A DNA stretch of 64,000 nt. Source: an uncultured delta proteobacterium. GTDB taxonomy: Bacteria > Desulfobacterota > Binatia > UBA9968. Made by a program: the position numbers and the translations under genes. Positions 4,593-18,325 of the stretch are shown here, one piece after another (within the stretch, counting starts at the first letter, position 1; each line of letters begins with the position of its first letter). The DNA lies in contig CAVSHR010000002.1 of assembly GCA_963727625.1 (NCBI GenBank), forward strand, positions 256,001 to 320,000. Reading direction: 5' to 3'. Below the pieces are notes generated by a model. The model worked only from the letters and a program-made list of their open reading frames with translations, searched no databases and was not told where the DNA came from.

Positions 4593-6755
4593 TTAATACC
4601 GGCCCCTTTCCACTTTTCCCTCGGGTCGCGCGAGTTGGTCTTTCGTGACCGGTACGACGCGCACGGCGCAGGCTTTGTACTCGGGGATTTTTGCGAGCGG
4701 GTCCAGGGCGTCGATAGTGAGCAAGTTGGCGGCGGCCTCATGAAAGTGCATCGGAATGAAAACCACGCCCACGGTGGTCCGCTGGGTGACCCAGGCGCGC
4801 AGGACGACGGTGCCGCGGCGCGACGAGACGCGCACGGCCTGCCCGTCTTCGATTTTCAAGCGGGCGCCATCCGCGGGATTGATTTCGATGCGTGCCTCCG
4901 GATAGAGCTCGTCGAGCTTCGAATGGCGCGTCAGCGTGCCGCCATGCCAGTGCTCGAGCAGCCGTCCGGTGGTCAAGATGAACGGGTATTCTTCGTCGGG
5001 CATCTCCACCGACGGCACGTATTCGAGCGGGTGAAACTTGCCCCTGCCGCTGGGAAAGCTCTCGGCGAAGAGATAGGGAGTGCCGGGATGACTGTCGTCC
5101 CACACCGGCGTCTGCAAACCCTCGTCTTCGATGCGCCGGTACTTTACGCCAGCATATTCCGGCACCACGCGGCCCATCTCTTCGAGCACTTCGGCGGGAC
5201 TCGGGTATGACCAGACTGAGGTCTGCGGACGGCCGAGTCGCTTTTCGATGCGCCCGGCGAGATCGCAGATGATCTCCCAATCGGCGCGCGCCTGGCCGCG
5301 CGGCTTCAACGCCTTGCGCACGCGCTGGACGCGGCGATCGGTGTTGGTGAAAGTGCCTTCCTTTTCCGCCCAGGAAGTTGCGGGCAAGAAAACGTCGGCA
5401 TAGGCGCCGGATTCGTTGATGAATAAGTCCTGCGCCGCCAAGAACTCTAACTGTTCGATCCTATGGCGCGTGTGGTTCAAATTGGGCTCGGACATCATCG
5501 GATTCTCGCCCATGATGTGCAACGCGCGCACTCCGCCCGGCCTGACTTCGCTCATGATTTCCGTCGTCGTCAGCCCTAACTTCCGGTTGAGCCCGCCCGG
5601 CTCGATGTTCCAGGCCTGCTCGAATTTACGCGCTGCCGCGTCGTCATCGACGCGTTGATAGCCGGGATAGTGCCACGGCATGGCGCCGGAATCCGAGGCG
5701 CCCTGGACATTATTCTGTCCGCGCAGCGGATTAAGACCAGTGCCTCTGCGGCCGATGTGGCCGGTGAGCAACGCAAGATGAATGAGCGACATCGCGTTGT
5801 CAGTGCCGTGGGAGTGCTCGGGAATACCCAGCGCCCAATAAATCGCCGCGTTCTTCGCCGTCGCATACATGCGCGCCGCCTGGACGATGAGATTGCGGTC
5901 AACGCCGGAAATCGCCTCGGCATATTCCGGCGAGAATTTTTCCATGGACTTGGAAAACTCTTCGAAGCCTTCGGTGCGCCGGTCGATGAAGTCCTGATTG
6001 TAGAGCCGTTCCTTGATGATGACATGGGCCATGGCGGAATAGAGCGGAACGTCGGTGCCCGGCTTCTCGGGCAGCCAGAGCGCCGCCCAGTTGACCATCT
6101 CCACCCGCCGCGGGTCGACGACAATGAGCTTCGCGCCGTGTTTTTCCACGGCGGCTTTCATCTGCAGGGCGATGATCGGATGGGTCTCCGCCGTGTTGGA
6201 GCCGGTCACGATAAAAACATCGCTGTGAATCACTTCGGCGGCGGTATTGCTCATCGCCGAGGAGCCGAGCGCCATCTGCAGGGCGACGACGGAGCCGGCG
6301 TGACACAGGCGTGTGCAGTGATCGACGTTGTTGCTGCGAAACAGGGCGCGGAAAAGTTTTTGCAGGAGATAGTTGTCCTCATTGGTCGCCTTGGCGCAGC
6401 AATAAACCGCCATGGCCTCCGCGCCGTCGCGCCGGTAAATCTCGACGAGCCGATCCGCGGTGTAATCGAGGGCCTCGTCCCACGAGACCTCGCGCCACTG
6501 GTCGCGGTCGAAGGCTTGGGTGCGCGCGCCGGGCGCCTGCGGTCTTTTGCGAATCAGCGGTGTCGTCACCCGGTCCTTGTTGTAAATAAAGTCGTAGCCG
6601 AAGCGACCTTTGACGCAGAGGTTGCCGTGGTTGACCGTCGCATCGAAAGGCGAAGTCACTTTGTAAATATAGTCGTCCTTGATGTGCAGCTCGAGATTGC
6701 AGCCCACGCCGCAGTACGGACAGGTGGTCGGGACAACGCGATCAGCGGTGATCAT
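4593..6755 (-). CDS. fdhF: Formate dehydrogenase alpha (Mo/W-bis-MGD) subunit, Cys-ligand form
   Basis: CPYCGVGC...[46 protein letters not shown] and KIPEYK. Confidence 0.95.
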
Positions 6756-7456
6756 GGCGTTTTCCTCCGGCGTTTTTTTCCGCCGCCGCGAGTTGCTTGC
6801 AGGATTTCATCCAAAGAAACTCCCTGCTCGAGCAGCGACTCGCGCTTGGGCTTGAGCGCTCCGGTGGGGCAGACGCCGACGCACTGGCCGCAAAATACGC
6901 AGCTGGTTTCCGGCATGGGCTTGTCGAAAAATGTGCCGATGCCGGTGTCGAAACCGCGGCCTTTAAAATTAATCGCATAGGTAAACTGGGCGTCGTCGGC
7001 GCACACCTGAACGCAACGCCAGCAGAGTATACACTTGGAGTAATCGCGGACGTACATCGGGTTATCGTCGAGCACCGGATACTCGCGCCGCTCCGCTTGC
7101 GGAAAGCGCGCCGGGTTGGCGCGATACTCGCCGATGAATTTTTGAATCTCCGGCGCCTGGGAAAGATCTACGGCCGAGGCGAGCAGCTCCAGAATGGTCC
7201 GGCGGCTGCGCTCGGCGCGCGCGCTCGAAGTCGTAACCTTCATGCCTTCGCTCACCCGGCTCAGGCAAGCCGGCAGCAGCGGCTTTACGCCGTCGACTTC
7301 GACCACGCAGATGCGGCAGAGGCCATTGGCGGTGCAGTGATCGTGGTAGCAAATCGTTGGGACTTGTTTGCCAAGCCGTTCGGCTGCTTTGAGGATCATT
7401 GTCCCGGCAGGAACGGTGACGGTGTTGCCATCGATAGTGAGTGTGACGTCAGTCAT
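6752..7456 (-). CDS. Stand-alone NuoG/HydA-N-terminal-like Fe-S subunit (2Fe-2S plus 2x4Fe-4S) of the FDH complex
   Basis: [25 protein letters not shown] and [12 protein letters not shown]; its stop overlaps the FDH start (ATGA). Confidence 0.9.
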
Positions 7457-13196: not shown

Positions 13197-14573
13197 ATGG
13201 CGGCCCTAGAAGATAACTTGCGCAAGGTTCCACCGCAGAACCTCGAAGCGGAGTCGTCCGTCCTGGGCGGCATATTGCTCGAGAACGAGGCGATCAATCA
13301 GGTCTTGGAGTCCTTGCGGCCAGAGGACTTTTATCGCGAATCGCACCGCAAAATTTTGCGCGCCATGATAGAAATCACCGATCGCGGCGAGCCGGTGGAC
13401 TTGATCACCCTGAGCGAGTTTCTCAAAAGCAAAAACGAGCTCGAAAGCGTGGGCGGCACGGCCTATCTGGCGTCTTTGGCCGACTTCGTGCCGACCGCTG
13501 CGAACATTTCCTACTACGCGCGCATCGTGCGCGAAAAGGCGATATTGCGCAGTCTGATCAGCACCGCGACCGAGATTGCCACGCGGGGTTACGAAGAGCA
13601 GGGCAACGTCGACGAGTTTCTCGATACCGCCGAAAAAGTCATCTTCGATATCTCCGAGAAAAAGGTCAAAGCATCCTTCGTCGCCGTCGGCGACATGATC
13701 ACCGATACGCTCAAGACCATCGACAAGCTTTATCAGCGTAAAGAGATGATTACCGGTGTGCCCACCGGTTATGAGGAGCTCGACAAGATTACCGCGGGGC
13801 TGCAGCCGTCGGATCTGATCATCGTCGCCGGCCGTCCGGGCATGGGCAAGACCGCGTTCGCTTTGAACATCGCCGCCAACGCCGCGTACACCGGTGTTGG
13901 CGCGGCGATATTTTCTCTGGAAATGGCCAAGGAACAGTTGGTGCTGCGCATGCTTTGCTCCGAGGCGCGGGTGAATAGCTCCAAGGTGCGCTCTGGTTAC
14001 CTCGGCGAGCGCGATTTTCCACAACTTGCAAAGGCAGCCGGCCGCTTGCACGAAGCGCCGATTTACATCGACGATACGCCGGCCATTTCGATCCTCGAGC
14101 TGCGCGCCAAGGCGCGCCGCTTGCTCCGCGACCGTACCAAAAAAGTGGGCCTGATCGTTGTCGATTATCTTCAGCTCATGCGCGGCATGGGCAACGCCAA
14201 CAATCGTGAACAAGAGATTTCAGAAATTTCCCGCTCCCTCAAAGCGCTCGCCAAAGAGCTGAGCGTTCCAGTAATTGCATTATCGCAGCTTAATCGCAAG
14301 GTTGAAGATCGGACCGGGAGAAAGCCGCAGATGTCAGACCTCCGTGAATCCGGAGCGATCGAACAGGACGCCGATGTAATTATGTTCATTTACCGGGAAG
14401 AGCTTTATGACAAGACCAACGAGGATGTGAAGGGCAAAGCCGAAGTCATTGTTGAGAAACAGCGTAATGGTCCCACCGGAACGATCACGCTCACTTTCCT
14501 CGGCGAGTATACCCGCTTCGAAAACTACACCGAACGGGACGATTACAGTTACGACGAGGCGGACGAGGCGTAG
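13197..14573 (+). CDS. dnaB: Replicative DNA helicase DnaB
   Basis: PPQNLEAE, GRPGMGKT, FSLEM, VDYLQL, LSQLNR, DLRESGAIEQDAD and KQRNGPTG. Confidence 0.98.
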   Translation: MAALEDNLRKVPPQNLEAESSVLGGILLENEAINQVLESLRPEDFYRESHRKILRAMIEITDRGEPVDLITLSEFLKSKNELESVGGTAYLASLADFVPTAANISYYARIVREKAILRSLISTATEIATRGYEEQGNVDEFLDTAEKVIFDISEKKVKASFVAVGDMITDTLKTIDKLYQRKEMITGVPTGYEELDKITAGLQPSDLIIVAGRPGMGKTAFALNIAANAAYTGVGAAIFSLEMAKEQLVLRMLCSEARVNSSKVRSGYLGERDFPQLAKAAGRLHEAPIYIDDTPAISILELRAKARRLLRDRTKKVGLIVVDYLQLMRGMGNANNREQEISEISRSLKALAKELSVPVIALSQLNRKVEDRTGRKPQMSDLRESGAIEQDADVIMFIYREELYDKTNEDVKGKAEVIVEKQRNGPTGTITLTFLGEYTRFENYTERDDYSYDEADEA

Positions 14574-14657
14574 TTAGACCGGCGCTCAGCCAATTTAGAA
14601 TTTCAGTCGTAAGATCCCACCAATTCAAGTTCGGCGGGTTGCCGGGAGGGAGCGAAG

Positions 14658-14912
14658 TTGCGGTTAGCCAAACCCATACGGCTCTCGATTCTGTTTTGAC
14701 GCTGTTTTTCGCTCGCCTGTTTTCACGGCGTCGCGCCGGCGGGCGAAGCAAACGCGCCGCCTTTGCTCCTGGCCAACGGACTGGGGCCGCGGGTCGATCC
14801 CGCCAAATATCTGGTCAGCGAGCAATACGACGGTGTACGAGGTAAGGAGCAGACGGCAAGCGTAAGCTCACCCGAGGGTTTGGCGATCGCTCTGAAGCGA
14901 AAAGTTGGCTAG
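14658..14912 (+). pseudogene. N-terminal remnant of a secreted-type ATP-dependent DNA ligase (LigE-like)
   Basis: RBS and TTG; signal-like stretch with in-frame TGA at 14697; then PPLLLANGLGPRVDPAKYLVSEQYDGVRG (motif I KxDGxR with K replaced by Q); homology ends at ~14843. Confidence 0.7.
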
Positions 14913-14946
14913 AAAAAATAGAGTAGGCATGAAGTGCTACACGAAT

Positions 14947-15651
14947 CTATTTTTCTTTGATTGCCGACTGATCTGGAGGAGCAACGCTAGGATGTTCGGC
15001 GGACCAAGAAAAATAATCGGCCCGGCTGCGGGCCTTAAACCGCTCGGCACTGAATCGATCCGCCCAACCAGATAGCGGTTTTAGATTCATCCCGTAGGCA
15101 GGATCGAACCGGGACCAGTTGCGGGCGTGCTCTTCCGACCGGAAGAGATTCATACCCGCTCATCGGTACGCCCGGCCTTCAGGCGGTCCGCCAAATCCGC
15201 TGTAGGCGTAGCCGACCATCATTTCAGGTTGAACCGACAAAACCGCGTCGTCCCGCATCTCTACCACGATCGGCTCTCCACAATCGAGACAGGGAGCGTC
15301 CACACGTACCATTTTTCCAGGAAATAGCCAGCGAACCGCCAGCGCTTCCAGCCCTCACTGAGCGAACCACTTCTGCTGACCGTTGATGGTGATGCGATAC
15401 TGAGTAGGCAGATTGTTAAACGGGGCAAAGGAAGCGATATAATCGGTGCCCGGAAAAAGCCAGCCTGGGTAGCTCCCACCAGCGTATGAGGGACAGGGTG
15501 CTTCCATCAACTCGTGAAGCAATTTTCGACCCTCCTCAACGGAGACGCCTAGGTCCTTTGCTAGCTCGGTATAATGGGGCGCCTGCCCCGTAGCAATGAA
15601 GCGTTGAATGATTAGGTGAAATACCCTGTCGAGAAGTTTTAAATCGGCCAT
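14947..15651 (-). CDS. MerB (alkylmercury lyase)-like protein with two in-frame UGA codons, probable double selenoprotein (234 aa; U99, U164)
   Basis: Continuous frame: N-terminal winged-helix-like region...KWFAQ-U-GLEALAV...DAPCLDCGEPI...AYR-U-AGMNLFRSEEHARNW. TGAs at 15355-15357 and 15160-15162 align with MerB C96 (CALD) and C159, and a hairpin follows each. Confidence 0.85.
15121..15159 (-). promoter_or_regulatory. Bacterial SECIS-like hairpin after the second UGA
   Basis: UGA-GCGGGUAUG-AAU-CUCUUCC-GGUC-GGAAGAG-CACGCCCGC; loop G is the 20th nt after UGA. Confidence 0.8.
15320..15354 (-). promoter_or_regulatory. Bacterial SECIS-like hairpin after the first UGA
   Basis: UGA-GGGCU-GGAAG-C-GCUGGC-GGUUC-GCUGGC-UA-UUUCC; loop G is the 18th nt after UGA. 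Confidence 0.72.
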
Positions 15652-15737
15652 GGGTTGTGCCTCCTTAATTCAGTCAGTTACTTCACAGCACCTTTCTTAG
15701 GCTGCTTTCGCATGCCAACCCGCGCTGCCTGTTCGCT

Positions 15738-16784
15738 TCACACTAACGGGATCTCGCTATTTTCCAGCATGTCCGATGGCATGTGTGATACTTTGATAGC
15801 TTGCTCGATATCGGCGTGGTCCCAGAGCATGAGCCGCCCTCCGTCGTATACTTCGCCGTGGTCGATGGTAATTGACTGTTGGAAACAGGCCACGTCGATG
15901 GGCGCGTGGGAGCGACCCACGTGGAAATGGACGATCATTGGGCTGCAGTGGGAGTAGCTGTACCACTCTACCGGGTTGGTCGCGCGGGCATAGGGGACCA
16001 CGGTCATCGGATTCACACCCGCATGCCAGGAATCGATGTAGCCGTCGGTCTTGTTAAGCGCCGCCAGCATGCGTCCTTCGCCGTCTCCACCTTTGACCGA
16101 AACGACACGGCCGTCCTGCAACTCCAGGGTCAGCGGATTCGTCTCGTTCATAGAGCCGAAAGCGGCGATATGATCTGCAACAATGACGCCTTCTGTCGCC
16201 ACTGCAACCGCCGGACTGTGCACTCCACCCGGAAAGTTTCGCCGCGCACGGCCACCTTCCTCCTCTACGAAATAGGCTTGTGCCACCGTGCTTTCGCGGG
16301 GGCCGAACGTGCCGCGCACGTCGGTGCCGTTGGGACTCGTGATGCGCCATGATTTGCCTGGCGCCGATAGGGTATCGATGGTCGCCGCCATGGCTTTTTG
16401 CACGGAGTACGGAAACGCCGCCCATTTCGTTGCCATGAGTTGTACCGTGCGCGCGCGATTGGGCACCCGGGTGCGTTTTTCTCCGGGAAAATGCGGATGG
16501 AGCGCCTCGCGCTTCAGCGAGGGATAGTGGGAAAAAAGCACGTCGGCTTTAGCGTAGGCGTTCAGAACATTCGCCGGAATGTCATCGGGCCGGTCTTTGG
16601 GTATCTTCGGTCCCCAGATGACGTTGACCTGTGCGCCACAGTTCTTGGCTTTCTCGGCAAGCGCAGCGGCAACCGGCTTGTCTGCCGCGCCCTCTTCGCT
16701 CACCACGTAAACCCTTTGCCCGCGCTCTACCGCGCCACAATCCTCGACACAGTTCTTTATGCCGGCTTCGAGCTTGTCAGTCAT
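15738..16784 (-). CDS. M29 aminopeptidase-fold / NicX (2,5-dihydroxypyridine dioxygenase)-like metalloprotein
   Basis: RITSPNGTD, NFPGG, TEGVIVAD, LELQDGRVVSVKGG, DSWHAGVNP and HFHVG layout typical of the M29/NicX fold. Confidence 0.6.
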   Translation of the reverse strand: MTDKLEAGIKNCVEDCGAVERGQRVYVVSEEGAADKPVAAALAEKAKNCGAQVNVIWGPKIPKDRPDDIPANVLNAYAKADVLFSHYPSLKREALHPHFPGEKRTRVPNRARTVQLMATKWAAFPYSVQKAMAATIDTLSAPGKSWRITSPNGTDVRGTFGPRESTVAQAYFVEEEGGRARRNFPGGVHSPAVAVATEGVIVADHIAAFGSMNETNPLTLELQDGRVVSVKGGDGEGRMLAALNKTDGYIDSWHAGVNPMTVVPYARATNPVEWYSYSHCSPMIVHFHVGRSHAPIDVACFQQSITIDHGEVYDGGRLMLWDHADIEQAIKVSHMPSDMLENSEIPLV

Positions 16785-16840
16785 GGTTTGTCCGCTCCTT
16801 CCTTTCGAGATCTAGGTTATCTACGATCGTAGGAATTTCT

Positions 16841-17632
16841 CTACCCGACGCGTTCCCACTGGTTTATGCCGACTTCCCAGCCTTTACTTTGGGAGAGATC
16901 CAAACGGTTACCTTCAGGGTCGGTAATCCGATACTCCGCGTAAGGCCGGTCATCGGGCCGTTTGTTGACTTTCACGACGCTGCTCACATCCTCCATGGTC
17001 GCTTTCAAATCGCGCACGAGAAAGCCGATATGATTGATGCCGAACTTCATCTCATGTCCTTTCGAGCCAGAATTGTAGAAAGGATGGATGGCCAAGTTGA
17101 TGTGCTCGTCGCCGACGAAGCGGTTGAGCTTACCGGCCTTGCGATAGTCGAATCCGCTTGGCACTTCGACAAAACCAAAGACCTCGCTGTAAAACTCTCT
17201 CATCCCCTCCGGGTCCATGGCGTTGTAGGCGATATGGCGAATGCCCGGTATGCGATGCTCTTCGATCACGCCGAAGGACTTTTCTGAAATACTCACCGGA
17301 TTGCCATCGGGATCATGAATGCGAATGACTCCGTGATGCAAATCCCCGTCTTCCGGAATCACCGGCCCGCGCGGAAAAAGTTTCAAGTAGCGGTTCTTTG
17401 TCTGCTCGACGCTCTCGACTTGAATACCGATGTGATTGAGACCCGTCTCCATGCGCGGCTCGCAGAGCGCCGGGCGCTTCTTGAAAAAAGTCAGGTTCAA
17501 AAAGCCGTCGGTGATCGAGACATCACCCGCGGACGACCTTCCCAGTTCCTTGGTGCCCATATAGCGCCCATAAAACTTCGCCAGCTCCTCGGGGTGGTCG
17601 GAAATGAAAGCAAGGTATCGGATGGTCGCCAT
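16841..17632 (-). CDS. Two-domain VOC (glyoxalase/extradiol dioxygenase superfamily) protein
   Basis: Internal duplication: IRYLAF...GLNHIGIQV...DPDGN and IRHIAY...GINHIGFLV...DPEGN. Confidence 0.88.
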   Translation of the reverse strand: MATIRYLAFISDHPEELAKFYGRYMGTKELGRSSAGDVSITDGFLNLTFFKKRPALCEPRMETGLNHIGIQVESVEQTKNRYLKLFPRGPVIPEDGDLHHGVIRIHDPDGNPVSISEKSFGVIEEHRIPGIRHIAYNAMDPEGMREFYSEVFGFVEVPSGFDYRKAGKLNRFVGDEHINLAIHPFYNSGSKGHEMKFGINHIGFLVRDLKATMEDVSSVVKVNKRPDDRPYAEYRITDPEGNRLDLSQSKGWEVGINQWERVG

Positions 17633-17881: not shown

Positions 17882-18325
17882 TCAATCGGCAGGTCGATAG
17901 GCCCACGTTTCAACCCCGCCCCCGACGACCTTTGAAAAGAGCGCAAATTCGGGCTCCGTGGAGGTTCTGAACAGGTGAGAATCGCACTTGCAATCGCTGC
18001 AACCGAATCCTTGAATCGAAGACATCCCCTCCGTAGCCGAAAAGACACCCGCCCATCGATGCTCAAGGCGCCTTGTTTCGTAGCTGTACCAAGAGCCGAT
18101 GGGGCGTAAAAATTCTCGCAGATAGTCGATATGCCAATGCAGCCGCTTGGCCTTTCGACAATGTCGCATTACCCGGGCTCGCACGCCGCCCGGTCCGAAG
18201 GCGCTGCCGACGTAGATATAGTACCCCGGGATCAGGTCGAGTTGACCCCAACGACCAACTTGGACCATAGCCTTTGATCGACTTTTCAAAATCAGTGCAT
18301 ATGTTCCAGGTTGTGATTTCATCAT
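17882..18325 (-). CDS. GIY-YIG nuclease family protein (DUF123 type)
   Basis: GTYALIL, YIYVGSAFGPGG..RVMRH, HWHIDYL and GFGCSDCKCDSHL. Confidence 0.85.
   Translation of the reverse strand: MMKSQPGTYALILKSRSKAMVQVGRWGQLDLIPGYYIYVGSAFGPGGVRARVMRHCRKAKRLHWHIDYLREFLRPIGSWYSYETRRLEHRWAGVFSATEGMSSIQGFGCSDCKCDSHLFRTSTEPEFALFSKVVGGGVETWAYRPAD

Follow-up and report, generated by a model that had tools for sequence, protein, structure and literature searches.

What is raised by one locus in a 64,000-nucleotide stretch of DNA from an uncultured delta proteobacterium (contig CAVSHR010000002.1, positions 256,001 to 320,000; hereafter the window) is whether a MerB-like gene interrupted by two in-frame UGA codons is a broken gene, or an intact one in which both codons are read as selenocysteine (Sec). 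A reading made from the letters of the window (the sequence-only reading) had proposed the latter, with Sec at both catalytic cysteine positions of MerB. The comparative, structural and RNA analyses reported here indicate that a single intact gene at this locus encodes a cytosolic MerB-fold protein of 234 residues with predicted Sec at both UGAs, and that this is almost certainly a real two-Sec selenoprotein. The fuller statement, that the two-Sec MerB-fold selenoprotein acts as an organometal lyase, is assigned a probability of about 0.55.

The reading frame and its relation to MerB and SaoL

A minus-strand frame of 234 codons extends from 15651 to 14947, with ATG at 15651-15649 and TAG at 14949-14947, and it contains exactly two internal stops, both TGA. 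Because of these two codons, translation table 11 provides only two pieces as open reading frames (ORFs), one of 98 aa (15355..15651) and one of 68 aa (14947..15153). Codons 100-163 are stop-free, and translation bears out the proposal that the two pieces share one frame with an open middle segment. Re-reading of the frame likewise showed that the coordinates, the residues, Glu102, C121, C124 and the 65-residue spacing between the two Sec codons had been given correctly. The features of the gene are as follows.

14947..15651, minus strand: predicted complete selenoprotein gene, MerB fold, with Sec99 and Sec164 (from the frame, Pfam MerB, and AlphaFold2 with Foldseek)
15660..15666, minus strand: Shine-Dalgarno sequence AAGGAGG, 8 nt 5' of the ATG (read from the sequence)
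15355..15357, minus strand: UGA codon 99 (read 15357-15355), flanked as WFAQ-U-GLEAL; predicted Sec in the column of MerB C96 (PDB sequence alignment and loci counts)
15346..15348, minus strand: codon 102, Glu, in the column of the MerB proton donor Asp99 (alignment and loci counts)
15280..15291, minus strand: C121-L-D-C124, with C121 in the column of MerB C117 and C124 an extra Cys (alignment and loci counts)
15160..15162, minus strand: UGA codon 164 (read 15162-15160), flanked as AYR-U-AGMNLFRSEEHARNW; predicted Sec in the column of MerB C159 (alignment and loci counts)

For searches of the protein, Cys was placed at both TGA codons. Pfam MerB (PF03243) was then matched with an E-value of 2.4e-17 and 63.6 bits, above the gathering cut-off of 27, as the sequence-only reading had led one to expect of a HMMER comparison. 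A sequence search of the PDB returned only MerB2 (5c17, E 4.1e-4) and MerB (1s6l, 3f2g and others, E about 0.2-0.5). In the PDB alignment codon 99 lies on the Cys of the MerB segment 'awCald' and Glu102 on the Asp three residues on, C121 lies on the Cys of 'sshCaatG', and codon 164 lies on the first Cys of 'sfCC'; the MerB-like layout that had been suggested, with both TGA codons on metal-binding cysteines and Glu in the Asp99 column, is recovered. The active-site residues of MerB are given as Cys96, Asp99 and Cys159 in the available part of Haft & Gwadz (bioRxiv 10.1101/2022.07.06.499078). Aligned with that triad are instead Sec, Glu and Sec, which are chemically analogous to it and non-identical.

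The fold provides further evidence for a MerB relationship. An AlphaFold2 model, made with an alignment of 47 sequences, has a mean predicted local distance difference test score of 94.1 and a predicted template modelling (TM) score of 0.90. MerB and MerB2 structures account for all of the top 11 Foldseek matches of this model in the PDB (E 1.3e-10 to 2.6e-7, TM-scores 0.46-0.67), and the first match to anything else has an E-value of 0.47, so that the predicted fold resembles MerB structures only. By domain score and fold the protein belongs to the Pfam MerB superfamily, and a genome-wide search for MerB found this to be the sole MerB-domain locus of the genome.

Comparison with characterized proteins defines both likeness and difference. 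MerB (EC 4.99.1.2, plasmid R831b; structures 3F0O, 3F0P, 3F2F and 1S6L) matches the fold over its full length (Foldseek E 1.3e-10, TM-scores 0.53-0.62), and the positions of both metal ligands, of the acidic residue and of the Cys equivalent to C117 coincide in the two proteins. However, it carries Cys, Cys and Asp99 where the present protein has predicted Sec at both ligands and Glu for Asp99, it lies in a mer operon whereas no mer operon, MerA or MerR is found near this gene, and the present protein has about 20 extra C-terminal residues. MerB2 (5C17), presumably of Bacillus megaterium, is the best PDB match by sequence and also by TM-score (0.60/0.67), but it has Cys ligands and is 18% identical to this protein.

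The closest parallel for a selenium-containing relative is SaoL (NF040728), a MerB-like organometallic lyase selenoprotein, which also belongs to the MerB superfamily PF03243, has Sec in the MerB Cys159 column, and like the present protein is truncated by gene callers at the UGA of that column. The differences nonetheless bear out the view, already taken from the sequence, that this is not SaoL. SaoL has one Sec, whereas here a second Sec (or a Cys) occupies the C96 column; and the SaoL model scores 38.6 bits against a cut-off of 140. In the available portions of its description SaoL has a CU motif, retains Asp (Asp102) and sits in a nine-gene SAO locus, while the present protein has R-U-A and Glu, and no SaoP above cut-off or conserved neighbours accompany it. 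In the 81 genome loci of the family described below that have U164, it is preceded by R, A, N or S and in no case by C. SaoL is exclusive to anaerobes according to the available part of bioRxiv 10.1101/2022.07.06.499078; the present family is found, by record names, in Acidimicrobiia, Binatia, Entotheonella, Methylomirabilota and Dehalococcoidia as well, the first three of which are generally taken to be aerobic.

SaoL is the only MerB-like entry in the available parts of a 2022 review (PMC9312934) and of a 2026 review covering 119 selenoprotein families or subfamilies (PMC13188914), and is the only published MerB-like selenoprotein found in those parts of the literature that were accessible. 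A two-Sec MerB-like family was not found in the accessible selenoprotein and MerB literature, where survey supplements might list it under another name, and no model in NCBIfam release 20.0 fits such a protein. As judged from sequence comparison, the protein belongs to a large family, separate from MerB as well as from SaoL, that has not been catalogued and is systematically mis-annotated.

Conservation of the two UGA codons across lineages

When one genome was scanned for each species, at least 596 pattern matches were obtained, of which at least 491 were confirmed as relatives. The best 80 were kept and, together with the window's own locus and one locus from the same genus, form a genome set of 82 loci; a metagenome set of 80 loci was obtained in a scan seeded with four Cys/Cys proteins. 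The best 80, by their record names, come from Syntrophobacteraceae, Binatia, Dehalococcoidia and other Chloroflexota, Methylomirabilota, Entotheonella, Acidimicrobiia (including the sponge-associated Poriferisodalis), Nitrospinota, Acidobacteriota and Desulfobacterales.

Codons 99 and 164 in the genome set are TGA/TGA in 56 loci and Cys/TGA in 25, with one frameshifted locus (L067); in the metagenome set they are TGA/TGA in 50 and Cys/TGA in 30, proportions that are biased by one of the two metagenome search patterns, which demanded Cys at column 99. Taken together, codon 164 is TGA in 161/162 loci (81/82 genome, 80/80 metagenome), and codon 99 is TGA in 107/162 (57/82 and 50/80) and Cys in 55/162 (25 + 30). 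Neither TAA or TAG nor a residue other than Cys was seen at either column at the DNA level in 161/162 loci, L067 being the exception, and the homologues thus have TGA or Cys throughout at both positions. L067, from a Nitrospinota metagenome-assembled genome (MAG; about 6001-6642), has TGA at codon 99 and a frame that shifts just past codon 164, the result of either an assembly error or a decaying copy.

The surrounding residues are also maintained. Glu102 is present in all 162 loci (82/82 genome, 80/80 metagenome) and C121 in 161/162 (82/82 and 79/80). The extra CxxC that had been noted from the sequence is indeed present in this protein, but is no constant of the family: C124 is found in 143/162 loci (77/82 and 66/80), with Gly in the remaining 19 (5/82 genome and 14/80 metagenome loci). 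Protein conservation persists past both UGAs to about residue 215 and includes the 3' motif ..MNLFRSEEHARxW..LxPLxxWxxRFSxxxFRxRxRxDYxSW, so that both flanks of each codon are kept up to the C-terminal region.

In an even sample of 401 genomes from the window's phylum, 42 matches at E <= 4.4e-50 were found in 37 genomes, this one included, and five genomes had two copies. Exactly two TGA codons are present in 41 of the 42. The other match (G365:C14:4116-4754) has one TGA and one TAA, and may be a pseudogene or may be a match that overruns the true stop.

These counts bear directly on the simplest alternative, that two nonsense mutations have killed a former Cys/Cys MerB-like gene. Such a dead gene would account for the fragments that are all that table 11 yields, but the two codons are both TGA in 106/162 independent loci, and codon 164 in 161/162; TAA and TAG are not seen at these codons; the protein is strongly conserved 3' of both stops; and SECIS (selenocysteine insertion sequence) hairpins are conserved in a genome with complete Sec machinery, as described below. 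The argument that two chance nonsense mutations at exactly both catalytic Cys positions are improbable is strengthened in that relatives belonging to many phyla also carry TGA at these two codons. A dead gene can practically be dismissed, and the pseudogene reading is refuted by the comparative data.

A maximum-likelihood tree was made from 79 full-length translations of genome loci, with L067, L084 and L096 left out and three fusions of 376/377 aa cut to 235 residues. Column 164 is Sec in 79/79 tree members, whereas column 99 requires at least 9 changes between Sec and Cys. The window's protein clusters with those of a Syntrophobacteraceae MAG, two Binatia MAGs and a 'Deltaproteobacteria' MAG (Shimodaira-Hasegawa-like approximate likelihood ratio test, SH-aLRT, 100%), to which it is 79-85% identical. 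Among the 24 other genomes of the same genus the gene is found in one (G013, L016:1501-2211), and it is found in 0/16 genomes from other families of the order. From this scarcity and the tree, the gene appears to be patchy and is probably mobile; and because the G013 copy is 50% identical and lies in a different clade, the tree suggests that the copies of the window and of G013 are two independent acquisitions.

SECIS-like hairpins, selenocysteine machinery and genetic code

Insertion of Sec by the bacterial machinery would be expected to depend on RNA structure next to each UGA, and a hairpin after each had been proposed. Conserved stems are found 11 and 12 nt downstream of the two codons, in the following elements.

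15322..15348, minus strand: SECIS-like element 1, an upper stem, loop and 3-bp lower stem (covariation alignment, RNAalifold)
15121..15159, minus strand: SECIS-like element 2, an upper hairpin with a local lower helix (folding, multi-locus pairing)

The upper stem of element 1, which begins 11 nt past UGA-99, consists of 7 bp (GCUGGCG/CGCUGGC, 15343-15337 with 15333-15327) closed over the loop GUU at 15336-15334; the family loop is G-U-N. Over 56 distinct sequences, 96.7% of 392 cells are paired, a figure that drops to 17-56% once one arm is shifted by 1-3 columns, and the closing pair is G-C in 27 sequences, A-U in 6, C-G in 6 and G-U in 5, and unpaired in 12. RNAalifold, unprompted, finds the same helix plus the 3-bp lower stem. 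Minimum free energy folding of the single sequence missed the hairpin (z-score -0.74), which is visible in the alignment only.

The 25 loci with Cys99 provide a natural control for element 1, and in these the helix is 75.4% paired. Column 18 is G in 57/57 Sec99 loci as against G16/A4/C5 in Cys99 loci, column 30 is C in 57/57 as against C15/G6/A3/T1, and loop column 25 is G in 57/57 as against 9/25, a contrast whose weight is limited by kinship among the loci. Third-codon positions that are frozen in Sec99 loci turn variable in Cys99 loci. Several Cys99 loci retain hairpin 1, and look like recent conversions.

Element 2 contains an 18-nt hairpin, CUCUUCC-GGUC-GGAAGAG (15147-15130), which begins 12 nt past UGA-164, and a lower helix GCGGGU/GCCCGC (15159-15154 with 15126-15121); with the lower helix included the fold has an energy of -25.1 kcal/mol and a z-score of -2.1. 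The upper helix is paired at 98.0% across 79 genome sequences and 97.3% across the 80 metagenome loci, and the exact 18-mer is retained in 53/80 metagenome loci. Across phyla there is essentially no variation at any of the six synonymous sites of L-F-R-S-E-E, which protein selection alone hardly explains. The lower helix is just 63.7% paired across the family, and is therefore not a family feature. Both elements place GU about 21-24 nt 3' of the UGA. Stem geometry and the GGUC loop presumably resemble the E. coli fdhF SECIS. A scan for promoters and terminators gave no call exceeding shuffle expectation, and one of its 'terminator' calls is SECIS hairpin 1.

The genome (6.6 Mb in 15 contigs, 98% complete) encodes the machinery for Sec, which the sequence-only reading had named as a point to check. 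The selA, selB and selD genes (607.5, 397.5 and 377 bits, all exceeding NCBIfam cut-offs) adjoin one another at C5:715112-719466, and ARAGORN finds one tRNA-SeC(tca) at C5:768830-768924, some 50 kb away. The selD gene itself holds one in-frame TGA, and is therefore also a selenoprotein gene. Together, the features by which bacterial selenoproteins are recognized, namely conserved flanks, Sec genes, a stem with G/U in its loop and Cys homologues, are all found for the MerB-like gene.

Sequence databases present the family in a different form. Among the 120 listed proteins, of 876 at E <= 0.001, there are 53 with Cys at column 99 and a C-terminus at exactly residue 163, 12 more of 155-157 aa with Cys at 99 whose local alignment halted before their end, 4 that are true Cys/Cys, and 5 other fragments. 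At E <= 0.001 an exhaustive profile search gave 1302 cluster representatives, of which 378 reached <= 1e-10 and 48 reached <= 1e-30. Many of the representatives are about 90 aa or about 155 aa long and terminate at the two TGA positions. The Cys homologues of the Sec columns amount to 55/162 loci for column 99 and 4/120 listed proteins for column 164.

The last 46 of the 120 show Trp at both columns, as would be expected if TGA were translated by the organism into Trp or Gly (code 4 or 25). However, these entries come from short metagenome contigs of about 1 kb, on which a gene caller can, we infer, choose code 4 to hold the frame open, and at the DNA level homologues carry Cys, never Trp, in these columns. 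Several homologous genes themselves terminate in TGA. In the present genome TGA closes 645/1589 ORFs of >=400 aa and is the commonest terminator of long ORFs, and within the window it ends 10/34 ORFs of >=300 aa; the genome is therefore not TGA-recoded. A changed code is hardly credible, and is rejected for this genome, where TGA is a normal stop and homologues have Cys.

Possible chemistry of the site, and genomic setting

With Sec as the preferred reading of both codons, a mechanism may be proposed on the basis of the MerB fold and the three aligned active-site positions. SelB and tRNA-Sec of the genome would read one SECIS hairpin downstream of each UGA. The selenolates of Sec99 and Sec164 would then clamp a soft metal or metalloid within an organometallic substrate, for which organomercurials, methylmercury among them, are the leading candidate. 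Glu102 would protonate the leaving carbon, so that the metal-carbon bond is split and a hydrocarbon released, as in MerB. Since the enzyme would work alone, without MerA, the bound metal would have to be removed by cellular thiols or by C121/C124. By analogy with MerB, a function specifically as a metal-carbon lyase is given somewhat less than an even chance.

A number of findings weigh against the proposed selenoprotein lyase. The NCBIfam MerB equivalogs NF009710 and NF033555 are missed (42.3 vs 193 and 33.2 vs 200 bits), identity to MerB is 17-19%, and Glu replaces Asp99 in 162/162 loci. On general chemical grounds, a product held as a Hg(II) bis-selenolate would be expected to leave the site only with great difficulty, which argues against turnover on mercury. 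MerA was not found above cut-off in the genome (best 380.7 vs 454.45 bits), and in the phylum sample it is present in 1/36 carriers and 15/364 non-carriers of the family. No neighbour is conserved across the 82 loci; the best cluster, a luciferase-like oxidoreductase as judged by eye, is the commonest and occurs in 17/82. For the RNA, element 2 shows almost no covariation because its hairpin is nearly invariant, Cys at codon 164 was found in 0/80 metagenome loci, which leaves hairpin 2 without a control, and an Rfam scan of 14000-17000 at E <= 10 returned no SECIS or other credible RNA family.

Some of these points would be accommodated if the protein were to bind a soft metal such as Hg(II), Cu(I) or Cd and hand it over, as in sequestration, a chaperone or a sensor, with no cleavage. 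The metal-binding pair is kept and even strengthened by Sec while the catalytic Asp is lost to Glu in every locus, and there is no MerA to receive a product. PDB entry 5c0t is a mercury-bound MerB D99S mutant, and according to the available part of bioRxiv 10.1101/2022.07.06.499078, MerB binds other heavy metals and one change at the metal site makes it a copper binder. Nevertheless, Glu is a conservative, proton-capable and invariant replacement, and the whole MerB core is conserved together with the motif that follows the second Cys (MNLFRSEEHARxW, compared with HFFAS..A..W). Two Sec would also be costly for a stoichiometric binder, which is unusual, though possible. A binding or hand-over protein is considered rather unlikely.

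A second alternative departs from metals altogether. Both Sec are predicted at a site where two chalcogen atoms come close, and most members have a nearby Cys pair, as might suit a redox enzyme using a di-selenol/diselenide couple or a selenenyl-sulfide with C121/C124. According to the available part of PMC13188914, redox proteins make up most of the selenoproteins of bacteria. However, there is no thioredoxin-like fold and no CxxU/UxxC motif, the predicted fold matches MerB only, and C124 is lost in 19/162 loci. A redox function is thus thought improbable.

A bolder form of the lyase proposal is that members of this widespread family demethylate methylmercury or another organometal independently of MerA, with a di-selenolate site that activates the metal-carbon bond. 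This is offered tentatively, and as stated is rather doubtful; if true, the family would be a candidate for the genetically unassigned 'mer-independent' breakdown of methylmercury in anoxic sediments, soils and the ocean interior. In the phylum sample, HgcA is found above cut-off in 18/36 carriers and 100/364 non-carriers (odds ratio 2.6, Fisher p 0.007, uncorrected), statistics that ignore relatedness among the genomes; in two further carriers HgcA is split at contig ends. HgcA was not found in the present genome, and its association with the family is a lead only.

If the interpretation as a two-Sec MerB-fold selenoprotein holds, an entire selenoprotein family (at least 491 loci) is absent from the catalogues and mis-annotated everywhere, its database entries being stubs of 90 aa and 155 aa or proteins with Trp at the active site, and the site would be the first of MerB type made of two selenolates. 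The gene is carried by lineages that are dominant in soils and sediments, in the deep ocean and in the microbiomes of sponges, and that mostly lack MerA. The family is a testable candidate for organometal chemistry, including methylmercury turnover, beyond the classical mer system, and its natural series of Sec/Sec, Cys/Sec and Cys/Cys members could show what selenium contributes at a metal-binding active site.

The genes around the locus in the window are these.

13197-14573, plus strand: DnaB helicase gene, downstream
15738-16784, minus strand: 348-aa ORF, 86 nt upstream of the MerB-like gene (ORF list)
16841-17632, minus strand: two-domain VOC/glyoxalase protein, upstream (domain match)
17882-18325, minus strand: DUF123 protein, upstream (domain match)

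The 348-aa ORF has no Pfam, NCBIfam or PDB sequence match. Identification of the VOC protein as ArsI/CadI was dropped at 20.7 bits against a cut-off of 116. Counterparts of the 348-aa ORF, the VOC protein and the DUF123 protein were not found beside other loci of the family. The sequence-only reading had seen no sao or mer genes alongside, and the searches agree with this: MerA and SaoP both fall below cut-off in the genome (SaoP at 166 vs 295 bits; no individual search was aimed at SaoB, SaoC or the remaining SAO genes), and mer-gene Pfam families are absent from the 10 neighbouring ORFs scanned.

A variant architecture occurs in three Candidatus Poriferisodalis chromosomes (L085, L094 and L095, about 5980-7107), where a C-terminal extension of about 140 aa brings the protein to 376-377 aa. 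These three proteins have Cys99 and Sec164, with Gly replacing C124.

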